Shown: piece after piece, positions 8,153 to 58,149 of the stretch
Numbering within the stretch: the stretch's first letter is position 1
How the letters are laid out: each line of letters opens with the position of its first letter
Assembly (NCBI GenBank): GCA_045592945.1
Contig: JAZNVT010000025.1
Location: 45,655 to 109,654, forward strand
Direction: 5' to 3'
Length of the DNA: 64,000 bases
Origin: Acutalibacteraceae bacterium
GTDB taxonomy: Bacteria; Bacillota; Clostridia; Oscillospirales; Acutalibacteraceae
Position numbers and translations under genes: made by a program
Notes under the pieces: model-generated
What the model was told of the DNA's origin: nothing
What the model saw: the letters and a program-made list of their open reading frames with translations, nothing else
Databases searched by the model: none

Positions 8153-8764
8153 TTAATCTTTATTTATTACCTTTTTATGCCATGAACCTTTATGACATTC
8201 AGGGCATTTCATATATCTTGTTCTGCCCACGTGAGGTGCCAGAAAAACAGATATATATTTAGGCACGTATTGATGGTGACATTTCTTACATTCATAATAG
8301 CCTGCAACCTGCTCAATACGTAATAAGAATGGAATTGCTACCAACAGCGGTATCATACTTGATAAAACTATTACTACCTGCTTCCATTCTTCCATTGGCA
8401 CGAATAAGCCGATTACAATACCAACTGCGAAGGGCACGCATGCCATTAAGCCTGCAAGTATTTCCATACGGAGTAAGTGTTTGTCAGCTTCTTGCTTCTG
8501 CTTGACCATTTCAAGCAAGTTGTTTTCTAATTCTTTGTTGTAATTATCCATCGTAACAACCTCCCCACTTAATAAATCGTTTACGCTGATATTTAAAATT
8601 TGACACAACTCGAGCATTATCGAAGAATCGGGTAACGATTTTCCCGTTTCCCATTTCGAAACAGCTCTGTCGGTGATGTTAAGCCTTTCAGCTAACTGCA
8701 TCTGAGTAAGACCGTTCTTTTTTCTTTGCTCGGCTATGAACTTTCCGATTTTTAAAAGATTCAT
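8153..8764 (-). CDS. XRE-family HTH regulator with TM segments and C-terminal zinc ribbon
   Basis: N-terminal HTH (GLTQMQLAERLNITDRAVSKWE), two hydrophobic segments, and CKKC..CPEC cysteine pairs. AGGAGG RBS. Confidence 0.8.
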   Translation of the reverse strand: MNLLKIGKFIAEQRKKNGLTQMQLAERLNITDRAVSKWETGKSLPDSSIMLELCQILNISVNDLLSGEVVTMDNYNKELENNLLEMVKQKQEADKHLLRMEILAGLMACVPFAVGIVIGLFVPMEEWKQVVIVLSSMIPLLVAIPFLLRIEQVAGYYECKKCHHQYVPKYISVFLAPHVGRTRYMKCPECHKGSWHKKVINKD

Positions 8765-16964: not shown

Positions 16965-17111
16965 GCAAGGCAAAGCCTTGCAAAATACTTCTTCACTATT
17001 CACTATTACTTATTACCTTCCCAAAATCCGAGTATATAAGAGAAAAGCGAAGAATGAATAGTGAAGAGTGAAAAAGTAAAAATCCCCGTACTATCGTACG
17101 AGGATTTTTGG
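16965..17111. repeat. Tail-type module of the modular repeat family (copy S1)
   Basis: GCAAGGC-aaa-GCCTTGC hairpin, then the CTTCTTCACTATTCACTATTAC tract, its imperfect inverse GAAGAATGAATAGTGAAGAG, and the AAAAATCCCCGTAC-tatc-GTACGAGGATTTTT hairpin. Direct repeat of 24020-24162. Confidence 0.8.
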
Positions 17112-24019: not shown

Positions 24020-24162
24020 CCGCCGTTGGCGGAGTGGACTTCTTCACTATTCACTATTACTTATTACTTCCCAAAAATCCGAGTATTCAAAGAACAAGTG
24101 AAGAGTGAAGAGGTAATAGTGAAAAAGTAAAAATCCCCGTACTATCGTACGAGGATTTTTGG
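24020..24162. repeat. Tail-type module of the modular repeat family (copy S2), includes the tRNA operon terminator hairpin
   Basis: CCGCC-gtt-GGCGG hairpin, the CTTCTTCACTATTCACTATTAC tract and its inverse, and the AAAAATCCCCGTAC..GTACGAGGATTTTT hairpin. Direct repeat of 16965-17111. Confidence 0.8.
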
Positions 24163-24244
24163 TGGGAGCGGGTGGATTCGAACCACCGAAGGCGGTGCCA
24201 ACAGATTTACAGTCTGCCCCCTTTGGCCACTCGGGAACACTCCC
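24160..24244 (-). tRNA. tRNA-Tyr (anticodon GTA), class II with long variable arm, encoded CCA
   Basis: The reverse complement GGGAGTGTTCCCGAGTGG..GACTGTAAATC..GGTGGTTCGAATCCACCCGCTCCCACCA folds as a cloverleaf. Confidence 0.9.
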
Positions 24245-24263
24245 ATGTTCACTATTAAAAAAA

Positions 24264-24339
24264 TGGAGCTGGTGGACGGACTCGAACCCCCGACCTGCTG
24301 ATTACAAATCAGCTGCTCTACCAACTGAGCTACACCAGC
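24264..24339 (-). tRNA. tRNA-Thr (anticodon TGT), encoded CCA
   Basis: Reverse complement GCTGGTGTAGCTCAGTTGGTAGAGCAGCTGATTTGTAATCAGCAGGTCGGGGGTTCGAGTCCGTCCACCAGCTCCA. One G-G mismatch in the T stem. Confidence 0.85.
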
Positions 24340-34803: not shown

Positions 34804-34861
34804 GCTCACCTCGTTCGTAAGATAATAGATAAAAGATAATATTGAATAGATAATAGAAAAG

Positions 34862-34905
34862 GGTCTGCGACGCGATTATAATGCTTCGCAGACCTGTTGT
34901 TTTTC
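34862..34905 (+). terminator. Probable groEL terminator, also the degenerate left arm of repeat copy A
   Basis: GGTCTGCGA..TCGCAGACC stem followed by TGTTGTTTTT. The CGATTATAATGCTTCGCA part matches the arm module in inverted orientation. Confidence 0.5.
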
Positions 34906-34934
34906 TGTAAACAAAATTGTAGCGAAGCCTATCA

Positions 34935-35400
34935 CTCTTTTTTTACGCAGTAAAAAAGGAGGGGGGACCGACGCCGTCAGGCGTTGGTGGGTGGTACCCG
35001 ACGTGAGTCCTCGAACGTCGTGAAACCTTAGGTTTCATTGACACAAACTTACCTAAAACAATAAATTTAGTTAGTACACAGTAAGGAACGTGGCTCTGCC
35101 CGTTCCGCTATGGGAGCAATTCATTTGCCGTTATACGTTATTGTATGGGTGAGTTTATTTACACGGAACACCCAGAGGGTGTTCCCTACAGTTGTTCTAT
35201 TATAGTTTTTTGTAATGGTTAGTTTCTAACATTTGAATCTAACGATTCAACTACGCTCCTTTGTCGCGTAGGGTACCACCCACCGCCCCGATTCAGTAAT
35301 AAATAAAGGATAGTATATTCACACGAAATATACTATCCTTTAATTTTAAATTTATTGAAGGTCGGTCCCCCCTCCTTTTTACCTGCGGTAAAAAAGAGGG
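34935..35400. repeat. Core of modular repeat / candidate large structured RNA, copy A
   Basis: Homologous to 39176-39710. Closed by a ~35-nt helix (34935-34969 / 35364-35400) and a perfect 14-bp helix (34986-34999 / 35271-35284). Multiple internal hairpins. No credible ORF. Confidence 0.8.
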
Positions 35401-35670
35401 ATAAATAGTTTTTCTATCCGTCTAAACCTAAGACGTAAGAGAACTACCCACCACCAAAAGCAAAGCTTTTGGTCCCCCTCCCTATTTGCTAACGCAAACA
35501 GGGATGAAAAGCTTCGCAAAATTTTAACTTATGCTCCTTGCGAAGCTCTATAATCGGCACGAAGTGCCCCTTCACTCCTAACTCCTCACTCCTAACTCCT
35601 CACTTAATAGTGAACGAAGCCTCTGGCATCTGGCATCTTCATTTGCCACTTGCCACTTCCAATTTGCCAT
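35401..35670. repeat. Arm module of the repeat family, copy A right arm
   Basis: Homologous to 39711-40002 and, inverted, to 38841-39175. Ends one nt before the rsmA stop codon. Confidence 0.8.
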
Positions 35671-35671
35671 T

Positions 35672-36523
35672 TTATTTTAAAGCTTCCGCAAGCCTTGCAA
35701 AGTCCTCCATTGTAAGCTTTTCGGCTCTTATAGTTTTTTCGAGCCCTGCCTTGCTGATAGCCTCGGCAACCTTATCCTTACCTATACCTAACCCTGCACT
35801 TATAGAGTTTTCGGCTGTTTTTCTTCTTTGTGAGAATGCCGCTTTTACAGTTTTAAAGAAAAATTCTTCATTTTCCACCTTAACGGGTGGCTCTTTTCTT
35901 ATTGTAAGGCGAATAACCTCACTATTTACTTTAGGAGGCGGTAAAAAAGAATCGCTTGGCACGAAGAAAAGCTCTTCGCTTTCGGCATAATAATTTACCG
36001 CAACGGTAACGGCACCGCCGTCACGGCTACCCACCTCGGCACAAAGGCGGTCAGCCGCCTCCTTTTGCACCATAACGGTTATTGCCTTCAAGGGCAAACG
36101 GCTTTCTAAAAGCATCATAATTATCGGTGAAGTAATATAATAAGGAAGGTTTGCACACACTACAACGTCCATTCCCTTGCATTTTTCCTCAATAATCTGA
36201 GGTAAATTTGCCTTCATTACGTCTTCATTTATAATTTCAACGTTGTTAAAATCCGCAAGAGTTTCCTTTAAGACGGGCAAAAGGCGTCTGTCAAGCTCGA
36301 AGCTTAAAACCTTACCCGCTCTTTTAGCAAGCTCGGCAGTTAAAACGCCTACACCTGGGCCTATTTCAATAGCACAGGTATTTTCATTAAGAAAAGCCGC
36401 CTCCGCCATAGCGGGACAAACCTCAGGGTCTACAAGGAAATTCTGACCTAACCCCTTATTAAAGGTAACTCCGTGCTTACCCATTACTGATTTTATAACG
36501 TTTATATCGGAAAGATTTTTCAT
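35672..36523 (-). CDS. rsmA: 16S rRNA (adenine1518/1519-N6)-dimethyltransferase RsmA/KsgA
   Basis: GQNFLVD and EIGPGVGVLT motifs. Start at MKNLSDINVIK. Confidence 0.9.
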   Translation of the reverse strand: MKNLSDINVIKSVMGKHGVTFNKGLGQNFLVDPEVCPAMAEAAFLNENTCAIEIGPGVGVLTAELAKRAGKVLSFELDRRLLPVLKETLADFNNVEIINEDVMKANLPQIIEEKCKGMDVVVCANLPYYITSPIIMMLLESRLPLKAITVMVQKEAADRLCAEVGSRDGGAVTVAVNYYAESEELFFVPSDSFLPPPKVNSEVIRLTIRKEPPVKVENEEFFFKTVKAAFSQRRKTAENSISAGLGIGKDKVAEAISKAGLEKTIRAEKLTMEDFARLAEALK

Positions 36524-36638: not shown

Positions 36639-38840
36639 ATGAAAACTATCAAAGATGCAAGATTCATACGTCAGGCTGCTGATTTCGGTGAAATCAGACC
36701 CGTTTTCAAGAAGGTTGTTTGGTTAGATAAGCCCGTTAGAAAAGCATCTCTTTTCTGCTCCGCTTTAGGCTATTACGAGGCATACCTTAACAACCAAAGA
36801 GTAGGAAAATTTATTTTCGCTCCCGGTTGGACTACCTACGGTAAAAGACTTCAGTATCAGGAATATAACGTTACAAATCTTCTTGAAGAGTGCAATACTC
36901 TTGATATTGCTCTGGGTAACGGTATGCGTTTTCACGGTAACCCACACGAAAATTACGAAAGCATAACCTCAAGAGAGGATGCTCTTATTGCTGCACTCGT
37001 TATTGAATATGAGGACGGCACAGAGGATTTTATCCCCACTGACTCTAGCTGGAAATGCAGTAAATCAAATATCGTTTATTCTCACGTTTATAACGGTGAA
37101 ACCGTTGATTTTACTATGAATACGGACGAGGAATTCCCCGTTAAAGAGCTTCCTGATATCAATATGGATATCCTTATTGAAACCGAGGGTGAGGAAGTAA
37201 GAGAAATGACTCGCCTTAATGCAATAGAGCTTATCAAAACTCCCAAGGGCGAAACAGTTATTGACTTCGGTCAGAATCTTACGGGCTACGTTGAATGGAG
37301 CGTGCCTGCAAAAAAGGGTAAGGAATTCAAGCTTTATCACGCAGAAATTCTTGATAAAGACGGTAACTTCTACACCGAAAACTTAAGAGGTGCGAAAGCA
37401 CAGGTTTCGGTTATTTCTGACGGTGTTGAAAGAGTATATAAGCCTCATTTTTCCTTCCAGGGCTTCCGTTATATTAAGCTTGAGGGCTTCGAGGAGGAAG
37501 ATATTAATTTAGAAAGCTTCACCGCAGTTGTTGTTTTCTCGGATATGAAGAGAATCGGCTATTTTGCTTGCGGTAACGACCTTGTTCAACAGCTTTATGA
37601 AAATATCGTCTGGGGTCTCAGAGGCAACTTCCTTGACGTGCCTACAGACTGTCCTCAGAGAGATGAAAGGCTTGGTTGGACGGGTGATGCTCAGGTTTTT
37701 GCCCGCACCGCTTCTACTACATACAGAACAGATAAATTCTTCAGAAAATGGTTGCACGACCTTGCTGCCGACCAACGTGAAAACGGTGCTATTACAGACG
37801 TTTGTCCCGACCTTCAACGTTGGGAATCTTACGGCTCTTCTGCCTGGGCAGATGCCTCTGTTATCGTGCCTTATCAGGTTTATGCCACATACGGTGATAA
37901 AACCATAATTGAAGAACAATTTGAGTCAATGAAAAAATGGATTGACTTTATGGAAAATAACGGTACCGAAAAAGGTCTTTTTGATGCTCACGAGCTTCAT
38001 TTCGGCGACTGGCTTTCTCTTGATGCGGGTAACGAAGCAACAGGCGGTCTTACCGATAAAAATCTTATAGGCTCCGCCTACCTTGCTTACTCAAACTCTC
38101 TCTTTATAAAAATGGGTAAGGCTATCGGCAAGGATATGTCTTACTACGAGGATCTTTATGAGCATTCAATAAAAGCCTATAGAAAGAAATTCCTTAATAC
38201 AGGTAAAACCGAGCATGAAACCCAGACCTCAAACGTACTTGCTCTTCACTTTAACCTTACCGATAACAGAGAGCGAGAGGCAGAAAAGCTTGTAAAAGAT
38301 ATTGAAGCCTGCGGTCACCTTAAAACAGGCTTCGTAGGTACACCCTATCTTCTTCATACTCTTACCGAAATCGGCAGGGCTGACCTTGCATACAAGCTTC
38401 TTTTAAGAAAAGAATTCCCCTCATGGCTTTTCCCCGTTACAAGAGGCTCAACAACAATGTGGGAACGCTGGGACGGTATGAAGGAGGACGGCTCCTTCGC
38501 AACTCCCGAAATGAACTCCTTTAACCATTACGCCTACGGCTCAGTTGGTGACTGGCTTTATAAGACAGTTGCAGGTATTGACTACGATATCAACGAGCCC
38601 GGCTACAAGCATATAATCTTCAGACCTCTTCCCTGCAAGGCTCTCGGCTACGCTAAAGCAAGAATTATCACCGACAACGGCGATATTATTTCAGGCTGGG
38701 AATATACAGGCAAGGGCAACGAATGTAAATTTACCTTTACTATCCCCAACGGCTGTCACGCTACTCTTTACCTTGATAACGAAGAGTACGAATTCGAAAG
38801 CGGTACTTATGATACTGTTTTTGAGTATGAGGGAATATAA
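36639..38840 (+). CDS. Alpha-L-rhamnosidase, GH78
   Basis: FRYIKLEG and DCPQRDERLGWTGD hallmark blocks. No signal peptide. Confidence 0.85.
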   Translation: MKTIKDARFIRQAADFGEIRPVFKKVVWLDKPVRKASLFCSALGYYEAYLNNQRVGKFIFAPGWTTYGKRLQYQEYNVTNLLEECNTLDIALGNGMRFHGNPHENYESITSREDALIAALVIEYEDGTEDFIPTDSSWKCSKSNIVYSHVYNGETVDFTMNTDEEFPVKELPDINMDILIETEGEEVREMTRLNAIELIKTPKGETVIDFGQNLTGYVEWSVPAKKGKEFKLYHAEILDKDGNFYTENLRGAKAQVSVISDGVERVYKPHFSFQGFRYIKLEGFEEEDINLESFTAVVVFSDMKRIGYFACGNDLVQQLYENIVWGLRGNFLDVPTDCPQRDERLGWTGDAQVFARTASTTYRTDKFFRKWLHDLAADQRENGAITDVCPDLQRWESYGSSAWADASVIVPYQVYATYGDKTIIEEQFESMKKWIDFMENNGTEKGLFDAHELHFGDWLSLDAGNEATGGLTDKNLIGSAYLAYSNSLFIKMGKAIGKDMSYYEDLYEHSIKAYRKKFLNTGKTEHETQTSNVLALHFNLTDNREREAEKLVKDIEACGHLKTGFVGTPYLLHTLTEIGRADLAYKLLLRKEFPSWLFPVTRGSTTMWERWDGMKEDGSFATPEMNSFNHYAYGSVGDWLYKTVAGIDYDINEPGYKHIIFRPLPCKALGYAKARIITDNGDIISGWEYTGKGNECKFTFTIPNGCHATLYLDNEEYEFESGTYDTVFEYEGI

Positions 38841-39175
38841 AAAAATGGCAAATTGCAAATGGGAAATGGCAAATGAAGATGCCGGATGCCAGAGGCGAGC
38901 ACACGATTTAGTGAGGAGTGTGGAGTTAGGAGTTAGGAGTGAAGGGGCACTTCGTGCCGATTATAGAGCTTCGCAAGAAGTAAAACTTAAATATTTGCGA
39001 TAGCCTTGCCTCCCTGTGCGAAGCATAGGGAGGGGGACCGTTCTTTGATATATTTTAAAAGTTGACAGACAGTATATTTCGCGTGATATACTGTCTGTTA
39101 TTTGTTTATTAAAGCGGAACGGTGGTGGGTAGTTCTCTTACGTCTTAGGTTTAGACGGATAGAAAAACCATTTAT
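38841..39175. repeat. Arm module, copy B left arm (inverted orientation)
   Basis: Reverse complement aligns with 35401-35670 and 39711-40002. Starts directly after the GH78 stop codon. Confidence 0.8.
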
Positions 39176-39710
39176 CCCTCTTTTTTTACGCAGTAAAAAA
39201 GGAGGGGGGACCAAAAGCTTGTCTTTTGGTGGGTGATACCCGACGTGAGACCCCGAACGTCGTGAAACCGTAGGTTTCATTGACACAAACTTATCTTTTC
39301 AAATAAAGTTTGGTAGTAATTCGTTTACCGTTATACGTTATTGTATGGGTGAGTTTATTTACGTGGTACACCCAGAGGGATTTTCCTTACAGTTGTTCTT
39401 TTTTGGTATCTCATAACTGTAAGGTTATTACCTTTGAATCTAACGATTCAACTACGCTCCTTTGTCGCGTAGGGTACCACCCACCGCCCCGACTCAGTAA
39501 CAAATAAAGGATAGTATATTCACACGAAATATACTATCCTTTAATTTTAAATTTATTGAAGGTCGGTCAACCGGTTACAATATAGTCGTCTTGCTCGTTA
39601 TTCACTTCGCAATACTCCTTATTGTGCCCAGAGCTTATTGTTCGCTTCATCTACCACTGGCAGCGCTCACAAACGCTCCCCCTCTTTTTTACCTACGGTA
39701 AAAAAGAGGG
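39176..39710. repeat. Core of modular repeat / candidate large structured RNA, copy B (carries a ~108-nt insertion at 39569-39676)
   Basis: Aligns with 34935-35400. Helices 39176-39212 / 39677-39710 and 39228-39241 / 39472-39485. Confidence 0.8.
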
Positions 39711-40002
39711 ATAAATAGTTCTTCTATCCGTCTAAACCTAAGACGTAAAAGAACTACCCACCACCAAAAGCAAAGCTTTTGGTCCCCCTCCCTATTTTCT
39801 GCGAAAACAGGGATGAAAAGCTTCGCAAAATTTTAACTTATACTCCTTGCGAAGCTTTACAATCGGCACGAAGTGCCCCTTCACTCCTCACTCCACACTC
39901 CTCACTTAATAGTGAACGAAGCCTCTGGCATCGGGTATCTGGCATCTATATAATTGCCAACGCAGTTCCGAAATTTGCCACTTGCCACTTGCAATTTCCA
40001 AC
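39711..40002. repeat. Arm module, copy B right arm
   Basis: Aligns with 35401-35670. Inverted with respect to 38841-39175. Confidence 0.8.
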
Positions 40003-40041: not shown

Positions 40042-40971
40042 TTATTTCAAAATCTTTTCGCCGTCGAATACGATAACACCGTGACCGCTACCTGTTTTAC
40101 CACCGCTTAAAACGTGGTCCTTAAAGGCTTTTCTCAAGGAGTTGTCGGTGGGCCATTTTTTAGGTGACATATAGCCGTATTTACCCATAATTCTCCAGGC
40201 ATCGTTAAATTTATCTTTAGCGTTGCTTTCGATAATTTCAAAGTCGTCCATAAATTTAAGAACGTTTGATTTGGGATTTAAGAAATCTCTGTGACCCTCG
40301 TAAAGAAGCCATGAGCCACATTCAAAAATCATAAGACCGTCTTCTCTGCGGCAATCCTTAAAGAATTCGTAAGCTCTCTTATATGAATCAAGTCTTACGT
40401 CGTCAGTAAGAGAAACGCCTGAAGAGGGGATATGGAAGCCTACAGTTTTATCACCTTTTTTTATTGTGATACCGCAAGAGGAGGTGTAATCATCTCTGCC
40501 GAAGGTTGAGTATTCAAACTGGAATCTGCCGAGGGCAAAACGGTTAAGCTTGTAGAAGCCGTCAAACCAACCACCAACAAAGGTACCGTATTTTTCTTTA
40601 CAGTCAACACATTCGTCGAATTTGTATTTTAAGTCCTGCATTGTATCCCAGAAAAGCTCGTCACTTAAGTTAGCCTCTTTGTAAAGGTTATGCATTCTTT
40701 CGCTACAAACCAAAAGGAAAACAAAGTGAAGAGAGTATTTGTTTACCTTATGCCAAAATGCAATTTTTGAAAGCTCATCCATTGCTTTGCCGAAATCGTG
40801 AGCTTCGGGGTACATATATGTATTAATAACCTCGTCAAATCTCTTTGAAAACAAATTGCTTTTTTCTATTTTGTTTGCGATTTTCTCAAAAAGCTCTTTT
40901 GCTTCCTCGGGAAGACCCAATCTTTTTTCAACCTCTAAAAAATGTTCGTTGCAATATTTCATTGTAGCCAT
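40042..40971 (-). CDS. Hypothetical protein (possibly DUF5596 / GNAT-like C-terminal domain family)
   Basis: 309-aa soluble ORF. Family assignment from memory is weak. Confidence 0.4.
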   Translation of the reverse strand: MATMKYCNEHFLEVEKRLGLPEEAKELFEKIANKIEKSNLFSKRFDEVINTYMYPEAHDFGKAMDELSKIAFWHKVNKYSLHFVFLLVCSERMHNLYKEANLSDELFWDTMQDLKYKFDECVDCKEKYGTFVGGWFDGFYKLNRFALGRFQFEYSTFGRDDYTSSCGITIKKGDKTVGFHIPSSGVSLTDDVRLDSYKRAYEFFKDCRREDGLMIFECGSWLLYEGHRDFLNPKSNVLKFMDDFEIIESNAKDKFNDAWRIMGKYGYMSPKKWPTDNSLRKAFKDHVLSGGKTGSGHGVIVFDGEKILK

Positions 40972-56006: not shown

Positions 56007-57614
56007 TTAAGGTAATTTAATGTTTTTCCAATCTGATACATTACATTGACCATATTCATTATCGCCAACAGCTACAAGTGTACCATTTTTTCTTAAATAA
56101 ACTGTATGGCTATCTCCGGCAGAAACGTCTGTTAAATTCGATAAACCGGATATTTCGCACTGTCCTTTACTATTCAATCCGACTGCACCGGCTTTGCCAT
56201 TTGAAAATACGACTGCGGTATGATATCGTCCGGCAGAAATTGCAACCACATTGCCTGCACCATCTACTTCACATTGACTATAATACTTATTCAAGTTTTT
56301 ATACGGTGTTTCAAATTCAGTTGCAATAAGGGTACCGTCATTTTTTAGACCAATTGAATGTTGATACCCTACAGAAACATCCTTAATATCGGTCCATTCC
56401 TCCACATCGGCTTCTCCACAATCCATTACGTTTCCAGAAACTCCAACAAGCGAATCATCAGCTTTGATTAATACAACAGTAGATTCCCCCCCAACAGAAA
56501 AATCAACAACACAATCCATAGTGTAAAGGTCACCCAAAAAAAATGTGAAACCACAAAGTACAATAGTTCCGTCACTTTTTAATCCTACAGTTATATTGTC
56601 GCCTGCATCGATAGCAACGATATCTGTCCATTCCTCAACTTTGCATTGTTCGCTTTCATTATTCCCTATTGCAACAACAGTACCATCTGATTTTAAACCT
56701 ACTGTATGATTACCTCCAGCAGCAACAGATACAATATCTGTCCAATCGGATACATTGCACTGCATAAAAGAATTATCACCCGTTGCAAGCACCGTGCCCG
56801 ACGTAGTTAGCGCCACTGTGTGTTTACTACCGGCATCAAAAGTTGTTTTTTCAGAAAGCTTATCCCAAAGTGCAAAACTTCTATCACGGCTATCTTCATA
56901 ATCTCCGGCAATACCATAATACATTGCAGCATAACTATAAACTCCGTTCATTTCATACTCATTAGCTAATGAGTATGCCGTAACCTTTGCAACATCGTTA
57001 TACATATTTCTCAAAATGTACTGAGCGAATGAGTGGTTTCCACGGGCAGCGATTTCGGTCGAAACAGATGCTACAACCGCAGCTTCTTTGTTATCTAAAT
57101 CTTCTCTATTGTAAACCCAGTTTGAGAAAATACTATCAATTTCATCATATTTTCCCTCATCAACCATATCACTAAGACATTCTTCCATCAATTCGTAACT
57201 GCGTTCGATTTTAGCCAAACGCAGATATATTATAGCACCCTGATAATCACCCTTTGCTAAGTCTTGTTCTGCACGCTTATGATATTGCATTGGCTTGATA
57301 ACAGTTGGATATAAAATCAATAATATACCTGCCAAAATAGCGATACTTACTGCAATACCGATAAATACTTTTTTCTTTTTATCAGTTGTGCTTTGGCTAT
57401 TGTTATTTTTTAAATCCTTGATATCAGTCTTTTCGCAATCTTCTTCAACACTGTCAACATCAACATCAAGAATCTCTTCTTCTAAGATTGAATCAGCAGC
57501 TATACAATTGTTTTCTTCATTTGGGATTTTTGTTCCGCATTTACTGCAGAAAATAATTTCTTGGTCATCAGGCACCGAAAAAACATTGCCACATGAGCCA
57601 CATAAAACTTTCAT
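56007..57614 (-). CDS. Zinc-ribbon / TM / RCC1-repeat (beta-propeller) protein
   Basis: N-terminal CGSCGN..CSKCG, one TM, a helical region, then repeated GxxHTVxLxxDGTVxAxGxNxxGQC units. Confidence 0.8.
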   Translation of the reverse strand: MKVLCGSCGNVFSVPDDQEIIFCSKCGTKIPNEENNCIAADSILEEEILDVDVDSVEEDCEKTDIKDLKNNNSQSTTDKKKKVFIGIAVSIAILAGILLILYPTVIKPMQYHKRAEQDLAKGDYQGAIIYLRLAKIERSYELMEECLSDMVDEGKYDEIDSIFSNWVYNREDLDNKEAAVVASVSTEIAARGNHSFAQYILRNMYNDVAKVTAYSLANEYEMNGVYSYAAMYYGIAGDYEDSRDRSFALWDKLSEKTTFDAGSKHTVALTTSGTVLATGDNSFMQCNVSDWTDIVSVAAGGNHTVGLKSDGTVVAIGNNESEQCKVEEWTDIVAIDAGDNITVGLKSDGTIVLCGFTFFLGDLYTMDCVVDFSVGGESTVVLIKADDSLVGVSGNVMDCGEADVEEWTDIKDVSVGYQHSIGLKNDGTLIATEFETPYKNLNKYYSQCEVDGAGNVVAISAGRYHTAVVFSNGKAGAVGLNSKGQCEISGLSNLTDVSAGDSHTVYLRKNGTLVAVGDNEYGQCNVSDWKNIKLP

Positions 57615-57838: not shown

Positions 57839-58041
57839 TTAAGGTAATTTAATGTTTTTCCAATCTGATACATTACATTGACCATATTCATTATCGCCAA
57901 CAGCTACAAGTGTACCATTTTTTCTTAAATAAACTGTATGGCTATCTCCGGCAGAAACGTCTGTTAAATTCGATAAATCGGATATTTCGCACTGTCCTTT
58001 ACTATTCAATCCGACTGCACCGGCTTTGCCGTTAGAAAATA
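57839..58041 (-). pseudogene. Orphan 3' fragment duplicating the C terminus of the RCC1-repeat gene
   Basis: About 203 nt nearly identical to 56007-56209 at a constant offset of 1832 nt. Homology stops abruptly and no upstream gene body exists. Confidence 0.8.
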
Positions 58042-58149
58042 TGGCTGATGCTGAATAAAAAATGTGTAGCATTTTTTGTGCTACACATCTTTTTTTTACA
58101 TAAAGTTTATGTTAATATTACAATGAATAAATGTTTTTGGGGAGAGACT

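Follow-up and report, generated by a model that had tools for sequence, protein, structure and literature searches.

Intergenic repeats that are modular and transcribable, fold into stable hairpins and carry compensatory changes are familiar from several bacteria, among them the BOX elements of Streptococcus pneumoniae and the bcr1-type repeats of the Bacillus cereus group, and the same traits recur in the repeats described here. However, neither BOX nor bcr1-type repeats are known to share their ends with a nuclease gene or to show the onion-like nesting observed in the present case. The DUF559 proteins, in turn, form a very widespread family with almost no assigned biology, and we know of no member with a demonstrated transposase or homing activity. 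The classification of PD-(D/E)xK enzymes puts DUF559 together with a homing endonuclease and with the T/G mismatch nickase Vsr (PMC3424549). Full-text literature searches yielded no paper tying DUF559 to repeats or mobility.

The window (the whole 64,000-nt stretch of DNA that was analysed) harbours two repeat copies, A and B, whose position-conserved hairpins are real and are sited in the inverted ends of a multi-copy family of nested palindromic DNA repeats. These hairpins most likely do not belong to a structured RNA gene of the conventional kind that evolves through compensatory substitution. Both copies belong to a mosaic family present in at least five species-level Clostridia/Acutalibacteraceae MAGs. 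A pattern scan of the genome collection with a 22-mer from the H2 arm gave 17 exact matches in five species-representative MAGs, 12 of them within one MAG and many at contig ends, and at least 12 family copies reside in that single MAG. Only the genome collection matched: exact-pattern scans of viral contigs (two patterns) and of JGI metagenome contigs (two patterns) gave no matches, nor did a blastn search of copy A against plasmids and phages. No exact database record was found for the GroEL and rhamnosidase proteins of the window, and homologues were used instead. According to the module maps, modules of the family are swapped, inverted or truncated, internally deleted copies are common, and entire arms occur in either orientation. 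Even hairpin loops are inverted (GGAACG-TGGCTTTTGCC-CGTTCC versus GGAACG-GGCAAAAGCCA-CGTTCC and, in a second case, TAAC versus GTTA).

Copy A begins with an outer shell made of an AGATAAT-type heptamer tract (34820-34861), which also precedes the element in L003, L007 and L026. It is followed by a terminator-like hairpin, GGTCTGCGA..TCGCAGACC, with a T run (34862-34905). The latter is a recurrent module of the family and not only the groEL terminator, being found left of P1 in L002, L003, L004, L014, L015 and L016, in L014 on both sides and inverted. The subfamily-1 left end (34922-34969, plus strand) comprises GCGAAGCC, the P1 hairpin CTCTTTTTTTAC-gca-GTAAAAAAGGAG, which has one T.G pair and a variable tip, and G-box1 GGAGGGGGGACC; the same end flanks intact DUF559 genes in L027, L028 and L039. 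Next come hairpin X in its version A (34969-34986), identical in L004, L014, L016 and L026, and G-box2 GGTGGGTGGTACCC (34986-34999, plus strand), the 5' arm of helix H2, which pairs with the 3' arm, C-box2 GGGTACCACCCACC (35271-35284, plus strand). The non-coding core, variant 1 (35000-35270, plus strand), has several local hairpins and a promoter-like TTGACA-N18-TAAATT (35038-35067), and occupies the place held by the DUF559 ORF in complete elements. Downstream of C-box2 lies the variable module Y in its long, terminator-like version (35285-35363), the U-rich tail of which is on the minus (G-rich) strand and hence faces inward. The subfamily-1 right end (35364-35403, plus strand) consists of C-box1 GGTCCCCCCTCC and the P2 hairpin in its C.A form. 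The terminal inverted repeat of copy A measures 43 nt (34930-34972 / 35361-35403), and the outer repeats 88-99 nt.

Further out, the subfamily-2 shell interior (module a1, 35404-35445, plus strand) pairs with 39131-39168. The subfamily-2 right end (35446-35520, plus strand), which matches the right end of the L049-L051 DUF559 cassettes, reads CTACCCACCACC, a hairpin AAAAGC-aaa-GCTTTT, GGTCCCCCTCC, a P-type hairpin with an A.C position (35480-35503) and ATGAAAAGCTTCGCAA. The outer shells of copy A (35511-35680) contain the AGCTTCGCAA..TTGCGAAGCT hairpin, GGCAC-gaa-GTGCC (35556-35568) and the heptamer tracts ACTCCTA/C, TGGCATC and TTGCCAC, the outermost TTGCCAC tract being the counterpart of a hairpin arm at empty sites. 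A sigma-54 promoter was considered for the TGGCAT..TTGCC of these tracts and rejected by eye, the spacing being one off. The view of the tracts as accumulated target duplications was also discarded, since their two sides are reverse complements and not direct repeats.

Copy B is a subfamily-1 element nested at the centre of a second-subfamily shell. Its left outer shells (38836-39011) are an inverted copy of 35511-35680, as shown by inverted repeats I1 and I5 and by alignment. The subfamily-2 left end (39012-39132, plus strand) is composed of a P-type hairpin with a G.T pair (39012-39030), GGAGGGGGACC, a long X that includes a hairpin at 39065-39098, and GGTGGTGGGTAG, and is followed by the left half of the shell-2 interior (39133-39172), covered by inverted repeat I3 (39121-39208 versus 39678-39765, 90%). 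The subfamily-1 left end (39173-39241, plus strand) has P1, G-box1, hairpin X in its version B (39211-39229) and the H2 5' arm with an A at 39236. The variant-1 core together with the H2 3' arm (39472-39485) extends over 39242-39485 (plus strand) and shows a 42-nt deletion relative to copy A, while the long Y (39486-39568) contains its hairpin at 39505-39543. C-box1 is split by an extra module of ~110 nt (39569-39677), which is not in copy A and has a 99% identical copy in L006. The remainder (39678-40000, plus strand) comprises P2, shell-2 interior, the subfamily-2 right end with its P-type hairpin at 39790-39812, the GGCAC hairpin (39865-39877) and heptamer tracts.

In other genomes, an intact DUF559 gene of 130 aa (Vsr/PD-(D/E)xK nuclease) is closely framed by the subfamily-1 ends. 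The conserved blocks are terminal inverted repeats made of the P hairpin, GGAGGGGGGACC, the variable hairpin X and GGTGGGTGGTAC, with the reverse complement at the far end. A complete element of ~0.55-0.75 kb thus reads (GCGAAGCC), P hairpin, GGAGGGGGGACC, hairpin X, GGTGGGTGGTAC, ribosome-binding site and DUF559 ORF, and after the ORF GTACCACCCACC, variable hairpin Y, GGTCCCCCCTCC, P hairpin and (GGCTTCGC). DUF559 genes (PF04480) were found between matching ends at L027, L028-L037 and L039-L048, and further subfamilies at L038 and L049-L054; the arm seen in the window is the right end of an L049-type cassette. PF04480 was assigned to the called gene and to all listed homologues, and the cassette protein matched PDB 3HRL (E = 2.6e-16). 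The order of box, ribosome-binding site, ORF, stop codon and box is precise at unrelated loci, with ends of ~60 nt that fall into at least three subfamilies. In compact cassettes, G-box2 lies directly upstream of the ribosome-binding site and abuts it, and C-box2 abuts the stop codon. Two cassette sets, each from the same locus, differ at about one ORF site in eight (our own count) and show 0 changes in the boxes, the non-ORF changes being restricted to loops and X. The occurrence of these sets at the same locus in many samples implies that complete cassettes can persist at a site for a long time; an empty allele was not recovered for any cassette with a DUF559 gene.

A tblastn search with the L027 protein and a 32-aa ORF gave nothing credible across the 64 kb of the window, and no DUF559 gene was found in the 17 repeat loci. 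Where complete elements have the ORF, the two window elements carry a non-coding core, and they are best read as non-autonomous derivatives. A coding core was rejected, as the window cores contain neither a conserved ORF nor a DUF559 remnant. The 32-aa ORF comes from the variant-2 cores and resembles the DUF559 N-terminus (8/13 identities, E = 0.003, a short pairwise match); it had no match in Pfam, NCBIfam or PDB. As a lead, it may represent a DUF559 remnant linking the non-coding cores to DUF559.

The sequence-only reading of this DNA had singled out five hairpin sites at which structure would be kept while the sequence differs between copies. Every interval was extracted, and all five are present where they had been placed, apart from one start that was off by one base. 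The hairpin sites are far beyond chance, their positions are fixed and some pair flips are true ones, but one of the five proved to be a swap. This is hairpin X, which lies between GGGGGGACC and GGTGGGTG in both copies and is CGACGCC-gtca-GGCGTTG in copy A (six Watson-Crick pairs and one G.T) and CCAAAAG-cttgt-CTTTTGG in copy B (seven Watson-Crick pairs). The difference had been taken for compensatory change; however, the same flanks enclose unrelated hairpins, each of which recurs unchanged elsewhere (the first at five loci, the second at four), as in a wholesale exchange. The exchange of palindromic modules rather than compensation, named beforehand as the outcome that would speak against the claim, is what was found here.

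The P-type hairpins (35480-35503, 39790-39812 and 39012-39030) agree with their description, including a genuine G-C to T-A flip. At stem position 5, the two direct copies have A.C and the inverted copy G.T; the remaining pairs are all Watson-Crick, and the mismatch is kept in nine of nine variants. The hairpin of the long Y in copy A, AAAGGATAGTATATT..AATATACTATCCTTT, starts at 35305 (35305-35341) and not at 35306, whereas the hairpin of the inverted arm at 39065-39098 was correctly located. The two are homologous, having the distal AGTATAT-ttcgYgtg-ATATACT in common, and the basal stem displays three double changes and no broken pair. The comparison of triloop stems in front of the CTTCACT tract is the weakest of the five. 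All of the stems exist (GGCAC-gaa-GTGCC at 35556 and 39865, CCGCC-gtt-GGCGG at 24020, GCAAGGC-aaa-GCCTTGC at 16965), but those at 24020 and 16965 are located 8-9 nt upstream of a CTTCACT tract that belongs to another family of repeats (16987-17111 / 24038-24162). Finally, the A at 39236 does stand opposite the C at 39477 in the 14-bp helix H2.

Across the family, at least 12 short versions of X and five classes of P tip were recognised, all of them perfect stems, and 12 of the 13 tested versions of hairpin X have the maximum stem that their length allows. At one locus, the P1 tip of three strains is TACC-gta-GGTA, TGC-ctt-GCA and TGC-tt-GCA between near-identical flanks. Pair flips were also seen elsewhere in the family (ATTGCC/GGCAAT to ATTGCT/AGCAAT, TTGAATC/GATTCAA to TTGAAGC/GCTTCAA, and GGCAC/GTGCC to GGCGC/GCGCC).

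The explanation we favour, and consider somewhat probable, is that the hairpins are terminal inverted repeat features of a family of small DNA elements, the ends of a nuclease-associated element being recognised as folded hairpins. A protein, with the DUF559 nuclease as the most plausible candidate, would recognise the ends once folded into DNA hairpins, either single-stranded or as cruciforms. It would read the boxes and the fixed mismatch, the latter setting strand or end polarity, and the hairpin tip would go unread and be free to change. New tips may come from another copy by exchange, or from events that restore a palindrome, for instance intrastrand template switching or cleavage of the hairpin tip followed by fill-in. 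Because a single event of this kind would yield a fully paired new stem, the result would mimic compensatory evolution. The long versions of X and Y may serve as inward-facing terminators insulating the element.

A wider version of this explanation, to which we attach only a low probability, holds that the DUF559 cassettes are an unrecognised class of tiny (~0.55 kb) autonomous selfish elements, the Vsr-like nuclease of which reads the ends when these are extruded as hairpins. Both recognition and nicking would then depend on the invariant T:G mismatch, with one T:G hairpin per end on opposite strands. Entry would take place at a symmetric palindrome centre (for example terminator tips or GCGAAGCC|GGCTTCGC) and without target duplication, and repeated rounds could generate onion-like nested palindromes, non-coding derivatives and re-synthesised tips. 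Re-synthesis would account for tips that are hypervariable yet perfectly paired.

Of the competing explanations, the one that survives best, although we regard it as doubtful, is that of an RNA unit. The ends would be structured 5' and 3' UTRs that pair (H1, H2) and stabilise, insulate or regulate the DUF559 mRNA, or else the window core would be a non-coding RNA, and hairpin sequences would drift under selection for pairing. In agreement with this, copy A (486 nt) folds on both strands far better than dinucleotide shuffles (z = -15.8 on the plus strand and -13.6 on the minus strand). In an alignment of five copies, 96.2% of the cells are paired, and sliding the partners by 1-3 columns lowers this to 42-49%. 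Double changes affect 10 of 117 pairs in this alignment, and some are isolated, but six of the ten fall into two blocks of three adjacent pairs, which speaks for module exchange as at hairpin X; independent full-length copies are too few for an R-scape-type test. The hairpins at 35305-35341 and 39505-39543 resemble intrinsic terminators, TTGACA-N18-TAAAKT is conserved in all variant-1 cores, which also have hairpins of their own, and the location of G-box2 at the ribosome-binding site and of C-box2 at the stop codon in compact cassettes would suit UTRs. The conserved boxes and paired tips would be compatible with a role at the RNA level as well.

An RNA unit is nevertheless difficult to reconcile with arms in both orientations, with common truncated or internally deleted copies and with loop inversions. 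The unrelated hairpins between the same flanks, unchanged in other genomes, the at least 12 copies in one MAG and the polymorphic presence at sites argue against it as well. Only ~2 G.T pairs were counted among ~70 distinct variable-tip pairs (a hand tally). Rfam 15 at gathering score detected just two tRNAs in the whole window, and at both loci with E up to 10 there were only weak hairpin-type matches (12-26 bits), far under the cut-offs; with no Rfam support, a group II intron, a ribozyme and an omega-RNA were all rejected. The strand is inconsistent, too. A minus-strand transcript had been tentatively proposed from G.U versus A.C, but the non-Watson-Crick position flips with orientation, being G.T at one end of the element and A.C at the other. 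This position, in the P-type hairpins of the shells and in their P-hairpin counterpart, exists because the hairpin is a quasi-palindrome and the left- and right-end copies are reverse complements; therefore, no transcript strand follows from it. Strand scoring in the five-copy alignment yields few independent events that contradict each other, and the H2 mismatches point both ways (one A.C and two U.G on the plus strand).

At corresponding places, closely related assemblies differ in that the site is filled, filled in part or empty. In the gene order M23-rsmA-rha-GH28, on which the presence/absence comparison was based, L025/L027 and L024 have just a 42-nt hairpin downstream of rha (an empty site), L026 has at the rha site a 355-nt partial filling with a bare palindrome at its centre, and L018 has fillings of ~880 and ~950 nt in this region. 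A more distant relative, L023 (83% aa), has no element on either side. Comparison of filled with empty sites showed that the sequence between the hairpin arms is replaced, and revealed no target-site duplication, clean insertion boundary or flanking direct repeat. Each locus thus has the appearance of an onion of nested palindromes, placed at the tip of a structure that in related strains is a simple hairpin between convergent genes. The window, with the order groEL-A-rsmA-rha-B, has gene neighbours around the rsmA-rha segment that differ from those of four other assemblies.

These observations might also be expected of passive palindromic repeats without a dedicated enzyme, in which intergenic terminator hairpins grow, diversify and spread by replication template switching, slippage and homologous recombination between copies and DUF559 is incidental, an explanation that we hold to be unlikely. 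The nested palindromes are indeed centred on a hairpin that was already there, and no target-site duplication was found. The heptamer tracts resemble slippage products, loop inversions and perfect new tips are products of template switching (PMC8794818), and the differing neighbours of rsmA-rha fit recombination between repeats. However, passive growth would hardly place ~60-nt ends with invariant G/C-rich boxes precisely around DUF559 at unrelated loci and in at least three end subfamilies, and conservation is higher in the boxes than in the ORF. Nor would it account for a fixed mismatch never repaired in nine variants despite tip turnover, or for the putative DUF559 remnant inside non-coding cores (the variant-2 lead). 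An assembly artefact, i.e. repeats or an arrangement created by chimeric joins in metagenome-assembled contigs, is very improbable: most of the sequences are MAGs and short-read contigs in which some junctions may be chimeric, many copies are at contig ends, contigs of 2.5-4.7 kb carry the rsmA-rha segment alone and the window neighbours are unlike those of four other assemblies, but the internal structure is coherent and conserved and the modules and ends recur in independent NCBI, ENA, JGI and Logan assemblies made with different assemblers, so that chimerism could explain some junctions at most and not the elements themselves.

Returning to folded DNA ends as the preferred explanation, DUF559 is now tied to conserved hairpin-built inverted ends, which provides a concrete, testable hypothesis of function. 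It is likewise tied to dispersed non-coding derivatives, which differ from one closely related gut-bacterial assembly to another and coincide with gene-order differences. More generally, repeat copies can come to differ by perfect "compensatory" hairpin changes through palindrome turnover at the DNA level, and the polarity of a mismatch in a quasi-palindrome is unfit for calling the transcript strand. Users of MAGs should bear in mind that repeats of this kind break short-read assemblies.

When compared to known systems, the window elements share several traits with MITEs: they are short, non-coding, multi-copy and intergenic, have terminal inverted repeats in common with protein-coding relatives, are polymorphic in site presence and are nested in one another. 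Unlike in MITEs, no target-site duplication was found, their partner gene encodes a DUF559/Vsr-like nuclease and not a known transposase, their interior is unrelated sequence and not a deletion derivative, and their ends are hairpins with hypervariable tips. Palindromes are also the target of certain insertion sequences (IS1397 and others in REP loops; PMC1525189), which similarly add new material at the tip or centre of an existing palindrome but are of the DDE or IS110 type, have defined ends and make duplications. REP/BIME/REPIN sequences and their RAYT genes (PMC2817692, PMC3116915, PMC3333891) also form extragenic palindromes in mosaic arrays of alternating orientation, often after convergent genes, and include a single-copy gene flanked by the palindromes of the dispersed repeat, hairpin recognition being presumed. 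In contrast, the gene found inside the ends of the present family is of another superfamily (PF04480) and not a Y1/HUH transposase, there is no conserved GTAG-type REP, and the units are much longer and are nested and not tandem.

Among homing endonuclease genes, the free-standing and intron-borne ones of the Vsr/DUF559 group (I-Bth0305I; PMC3424549) share with the DUF559 cassettes a small PD-(D/E)xK nuclease gene in a compact, selfish-looking cassette. They need no inverted-repeat ends, however, and leave no dispersed non-coding derivatives, and the DUF559 cassettes are without a known cleavage site or intron. The attC sites of integrons (PMC5027507) belong to a system of integrase, R/L core sites and cassette arrays that appears to have no equivalent in this family, where the boxes on either side show strong sequence conservation and no GTTRRRY core site was evident by eye in the element ends. 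Yet they resemble these ends in that structure takes precedence over sequence, fixed unpaired or mismatched positions mark the strands, and the terminal structure varies freely in both sequence and length.

Two related non-coding blocks occur in the window, each in a gap between convergent genes: copy A (~34820-35680) lies downstream of groEL and copy B (38836-40000) downstream of the GH78 rhamnosidase gene, with an rsmA-like gene and the rhamnosidase gene between them. Their common segments share 86-98% identity, and no ORF conserved between the copies was found. Relative to copy A, copy B has an inverted "arm" on the left, a 42-nt core deletion and a 110-nt additional module. This ~110-nt module (39569-39677) interrupts the GGTCCCCCC box in copy B only. 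It recurs with 99% identity in another genome (locus L006, 2746-2839; L numbers denote loci from other assemblies) and so could represent a small insert of its own. The outer palindrome shells (34820-34861, 35569-35680, 38841-38945 and 39878-40000 in the window, and at many loci) are built of short tracts in which 2-5 heptamers of the kinds ACTCCTC/A, TGGCATC, TTGCCAC/T, AGATAAT, TGAATAA and GACTGGC stand in tandem; one strand of the ACTCCTC tract is a run of Shine-Dalgarno-like AGGAG repeats.

The hairpin structure of the copies greatly exceeds what chance would give. The folding energy of copy A is -210 kcal/mol for the plus strand (z = -15.8) and -203.7 kcal/mol for the minus strand (z = -13.6), and across five full-length copies the paired cells make up 96.2%, compared with 42-49% when the partners are slid. 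Interval extraction returned the sequence quoted by the sequence-only reading for every hairpin except the long-module hairpin (c), which starts at 35305 and not at 35306. The Rfam scan of the window yielded two tRNAs only, the search of the copy A and copy B loci at E values up to 10 yielded nothing credible, and the plasmid, phage and viral collections contained no match to the repeat.

The weakest of the comparisons originally drawn concerns the triloop hairpin before the CTTCACT tract, since the hairpins at 24020 and 16965 flank another repeat family. Besides CTTCACT/ATTCACT heptamers, that family (16987-17111 and 24038-24162; 125 nt, 88% identity) contains a separate inverted repeat and a hairpin resembling a terminator, and one copy adjoins two tRNA genes (24163-24339, minus strand). 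In addition, a 209-nt direct repeat (56007-56215 and 57839-58047, 98% identity) that looks like a partial duplication flanks a minus-strand ORF (56007-57614) containing RCC1 repeats, and a motif containing GGGACGGTTCTGTG occurs in direct and inverted copies (52628-52656/53288-53316 and 54032-54089/54446-54503) near small ORFs with no Pfam match.

A 22-mer of the 3' arm of H2, the 14-bp helix, gave 17 matches in five species-representative MAGs: 12 in one Clostridia MAG from water-deer rectum, many at contig ends, and the rest in four MAGs of Acutalibacteraceae. The matched loci have the repeat alone in common with the window, and their module maps include full-length copies, internal deletions, alternative cores, inverted modules and inverted hairpin loops. 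At L027, window-type ends enclose an intact 130-aa gene annotated as PF04480 (DUF559), and homologues of its product led to loci L028-L054. The cassette is compact in L028-L037 and L039-L048, where one H2 arm (G-box2) abuts the ribosome-binding site and the other (C-box2) the stop codon; two further end subfamilies (L038 and L049-L054) have the same architecture. The L049-type right end, ...CCCACCACC - hairpin - ..CCCCT-CCCTATTTTGC-tgc-GCAAAACAGGG-ATGATAGGCTTCGCAA, is the window "arm", whose hairpin (b) represents the P-type hairpin of this end. Hence copy B is a subfamily-1 element nested at the centre of a subfamily-2 shell, the left half of which copy A has lost. Most close DUF559 homologues lie on contigs of only 0.5-3 kb, which suggests that short-read assemblies commonly fail at the cassettes or at their ends. 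Cores of a second type carry a conserved 32-aa ORF, MDKRKPLPINPELKEYAVEMRKNMTDEEKSLI, with a good ribosome-binding site (L014:737-832, minus strand; L018:4593-4688 and 8608-8703; L020:116-211; L021:3725-3820). It resembles the DUF559 N-terminus (EMRKNMTDEEKSL versus QMRKNPTEEENKL), a resemblance not confirmed by profile searches of Pfam, NCBIfam and PDB, which gave no match.

The unit GGAGGGGGGACC - X - GGTGGGTGG is present in both orientations, X being a short hairpin (at least 12 different versions) or a long module of 73-81 nt. The maximal possible stem is reached in 12 of the 13 X versions tested, and those of the window, CGACGCC-gtca-GGCGTTG and CCAAAAG-cttgt-CTTTTGG, were each found unchanged at other loci as well as in other genomes. 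The P hairpins at the left (P1) and right (P2) of the element fall into five tip classes (TGC/GCA, CTC/GAG, TACC/GGTA, TCGT/ACGA and TTAC/GTAA); because those of a single element sometimes belong to different classes (L014, L015), it is the local hairpins that are kept and not long-range P1:P2 pairing. Hairpin (b) exists in nine variants with differing tips and the same mismatch at stem position 5, and the homologous hairpins (c) and (c') differ by three double changes with zero broken pairs. Structure-preserving change is therefore real, as was proposed from the sequence, but it is of two kinds. In one, single pairs flip in isolation; in the other, a tip or a whole hairpin is replaced outright while the flanks stay identical. 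Structure conservation thus holds, whereas gradual compensation accounts for only part of it. Exchange between copies, or template switching, can produce a perfect new tip in a single step (PMC8794818), which mimics compensatory evolution.

When two sets of cassettes sharing a locus are compared, ~1 site in 8 differs in the ORF (tallied by hand on the variability line) and 0 sites differ in the boxes and P stems; the differences outside the ORF are confined to loops and X (ACC-gca-GGT versus GCG-tta-GC). One DUF559 cassette at one locus has in three strains the P1 tip TACC-gta-GGTA, TGC-ctt-GCA or TGC-tt-GCA (L024:8860-8900, L026:9455-9495, L027:17738-17778) within 77 nt of almost identical flanks. 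The P1 tip is thus a localised hot spot. One mismatch is fixed, and the pattern suggests that the boxes are read in sequence and that the tips need pairing.

Contigs of close relatives with the gene order M23 peptidase - rsmA - rha - GH28 were reached via rhamnosidase homologues. In two assemblies rha is followed just by a 42-nt hairpin, AAAATGGCAAGTGGTGC-taaa-GCACCACTTGCCATTT; one has a 355-nt partial filling centred on the bare palindrome GCGAAGCCTATCCCTCTTTTTTCG-tttca-CGAAAAAAGAGGGATAGGCTTCGC, and another has fillings of ~880 and ~950 nt on either side of the rsmA-rha pair. No filling is present at these sites in a relative that is further removed (83% at the amino acid level). In every case the added DNA separates the arms of the simple hairpin, and the heptamer tracts furthest out (GTGGCAA/TTGCCAC) are longer forms of these arms; no target duplication is visible between filled and empty sites. 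The 3.26-kb rsmA-rhamnosidase segment of the window is 95% identical to L018, but its neighbours are groEL and a GNAT-like ORF (40042-40971) instead of the M23 peptidase and GH28 of four other assemblies, with break points inside repeat elements (compared with L018, L024, L026 and L027); the cause is either that the repeats mediated a rearrangement or that the assembly made a chimeric join here.

Hairpin (b) had also been taken, tentatively, to indicate the transcribed strand. Each of the three subfamilies shows, on the coding strand, G.T in the end that precedes the ORF and A.C in the end that follows it, because the P hairpin is quasi-palindromic and its two copies are reverse complements; a transcript of either strand therefore holds one of each, the hairpin gives no strand, and the strand inference fails. 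The mismatch in H2 is A.C in a single copy, whereas two copies have U.G. Among ~70 distinct variable-tip pairs only ~2 are G.T (hand count), which is low for drifting RNA stems, though not decisive. An RNA-level role for the element ends or for the variant-1 core, one of two non-coding interiors, is the less probable reading; that core has a conserved TTGACA-N18-TAAAKT motif. This promoter-like sequence (TAAATT/TAAAGT; 35038-35067 and 39280-39309) is kept in all variant-1 cores, the short L015/L016 form included, and might start a plus-strand transcript of ~250 nt that would stop at hairpin (c). The long X/Y modules, in which this hairpin lies, look like inward-facing terminators.

The best-supported reading is a family of DNA elements whose ends would act as folded hairpins, single-stranded or cruciform, and would be recognised by a protein, for which the DUF559 nuclease is the most plausible candidate; we infer the folding of the DNA, the action of DUF559 on the ends and the mode of insertion. 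DUF559, whose protein here matches the solved structure 3HRL, is grouped with the T/G-mismatch nickase Vsr and a homing endonuclease in the PD-(D/E)xK superfamily (PMC3424549; PMC12907096). A similar logic is found in integron attC sites, where fixed unpaired features for strand choice accompany a free variable terminal structure (PMC5027507), and in REP/RAYT systems, where the palindromes on either side of a gene are those of the dispersed repeats (PMC2817692, PMC3333891). The family probably belongs to neither. It is of a known general kind, intergenic repeats that have inverted, hairpin-built ends and a partner encoding a protein, and is unusual in having DUF559 as that partner, in its onion-like nesting and in its hypervariable yet paired tips.
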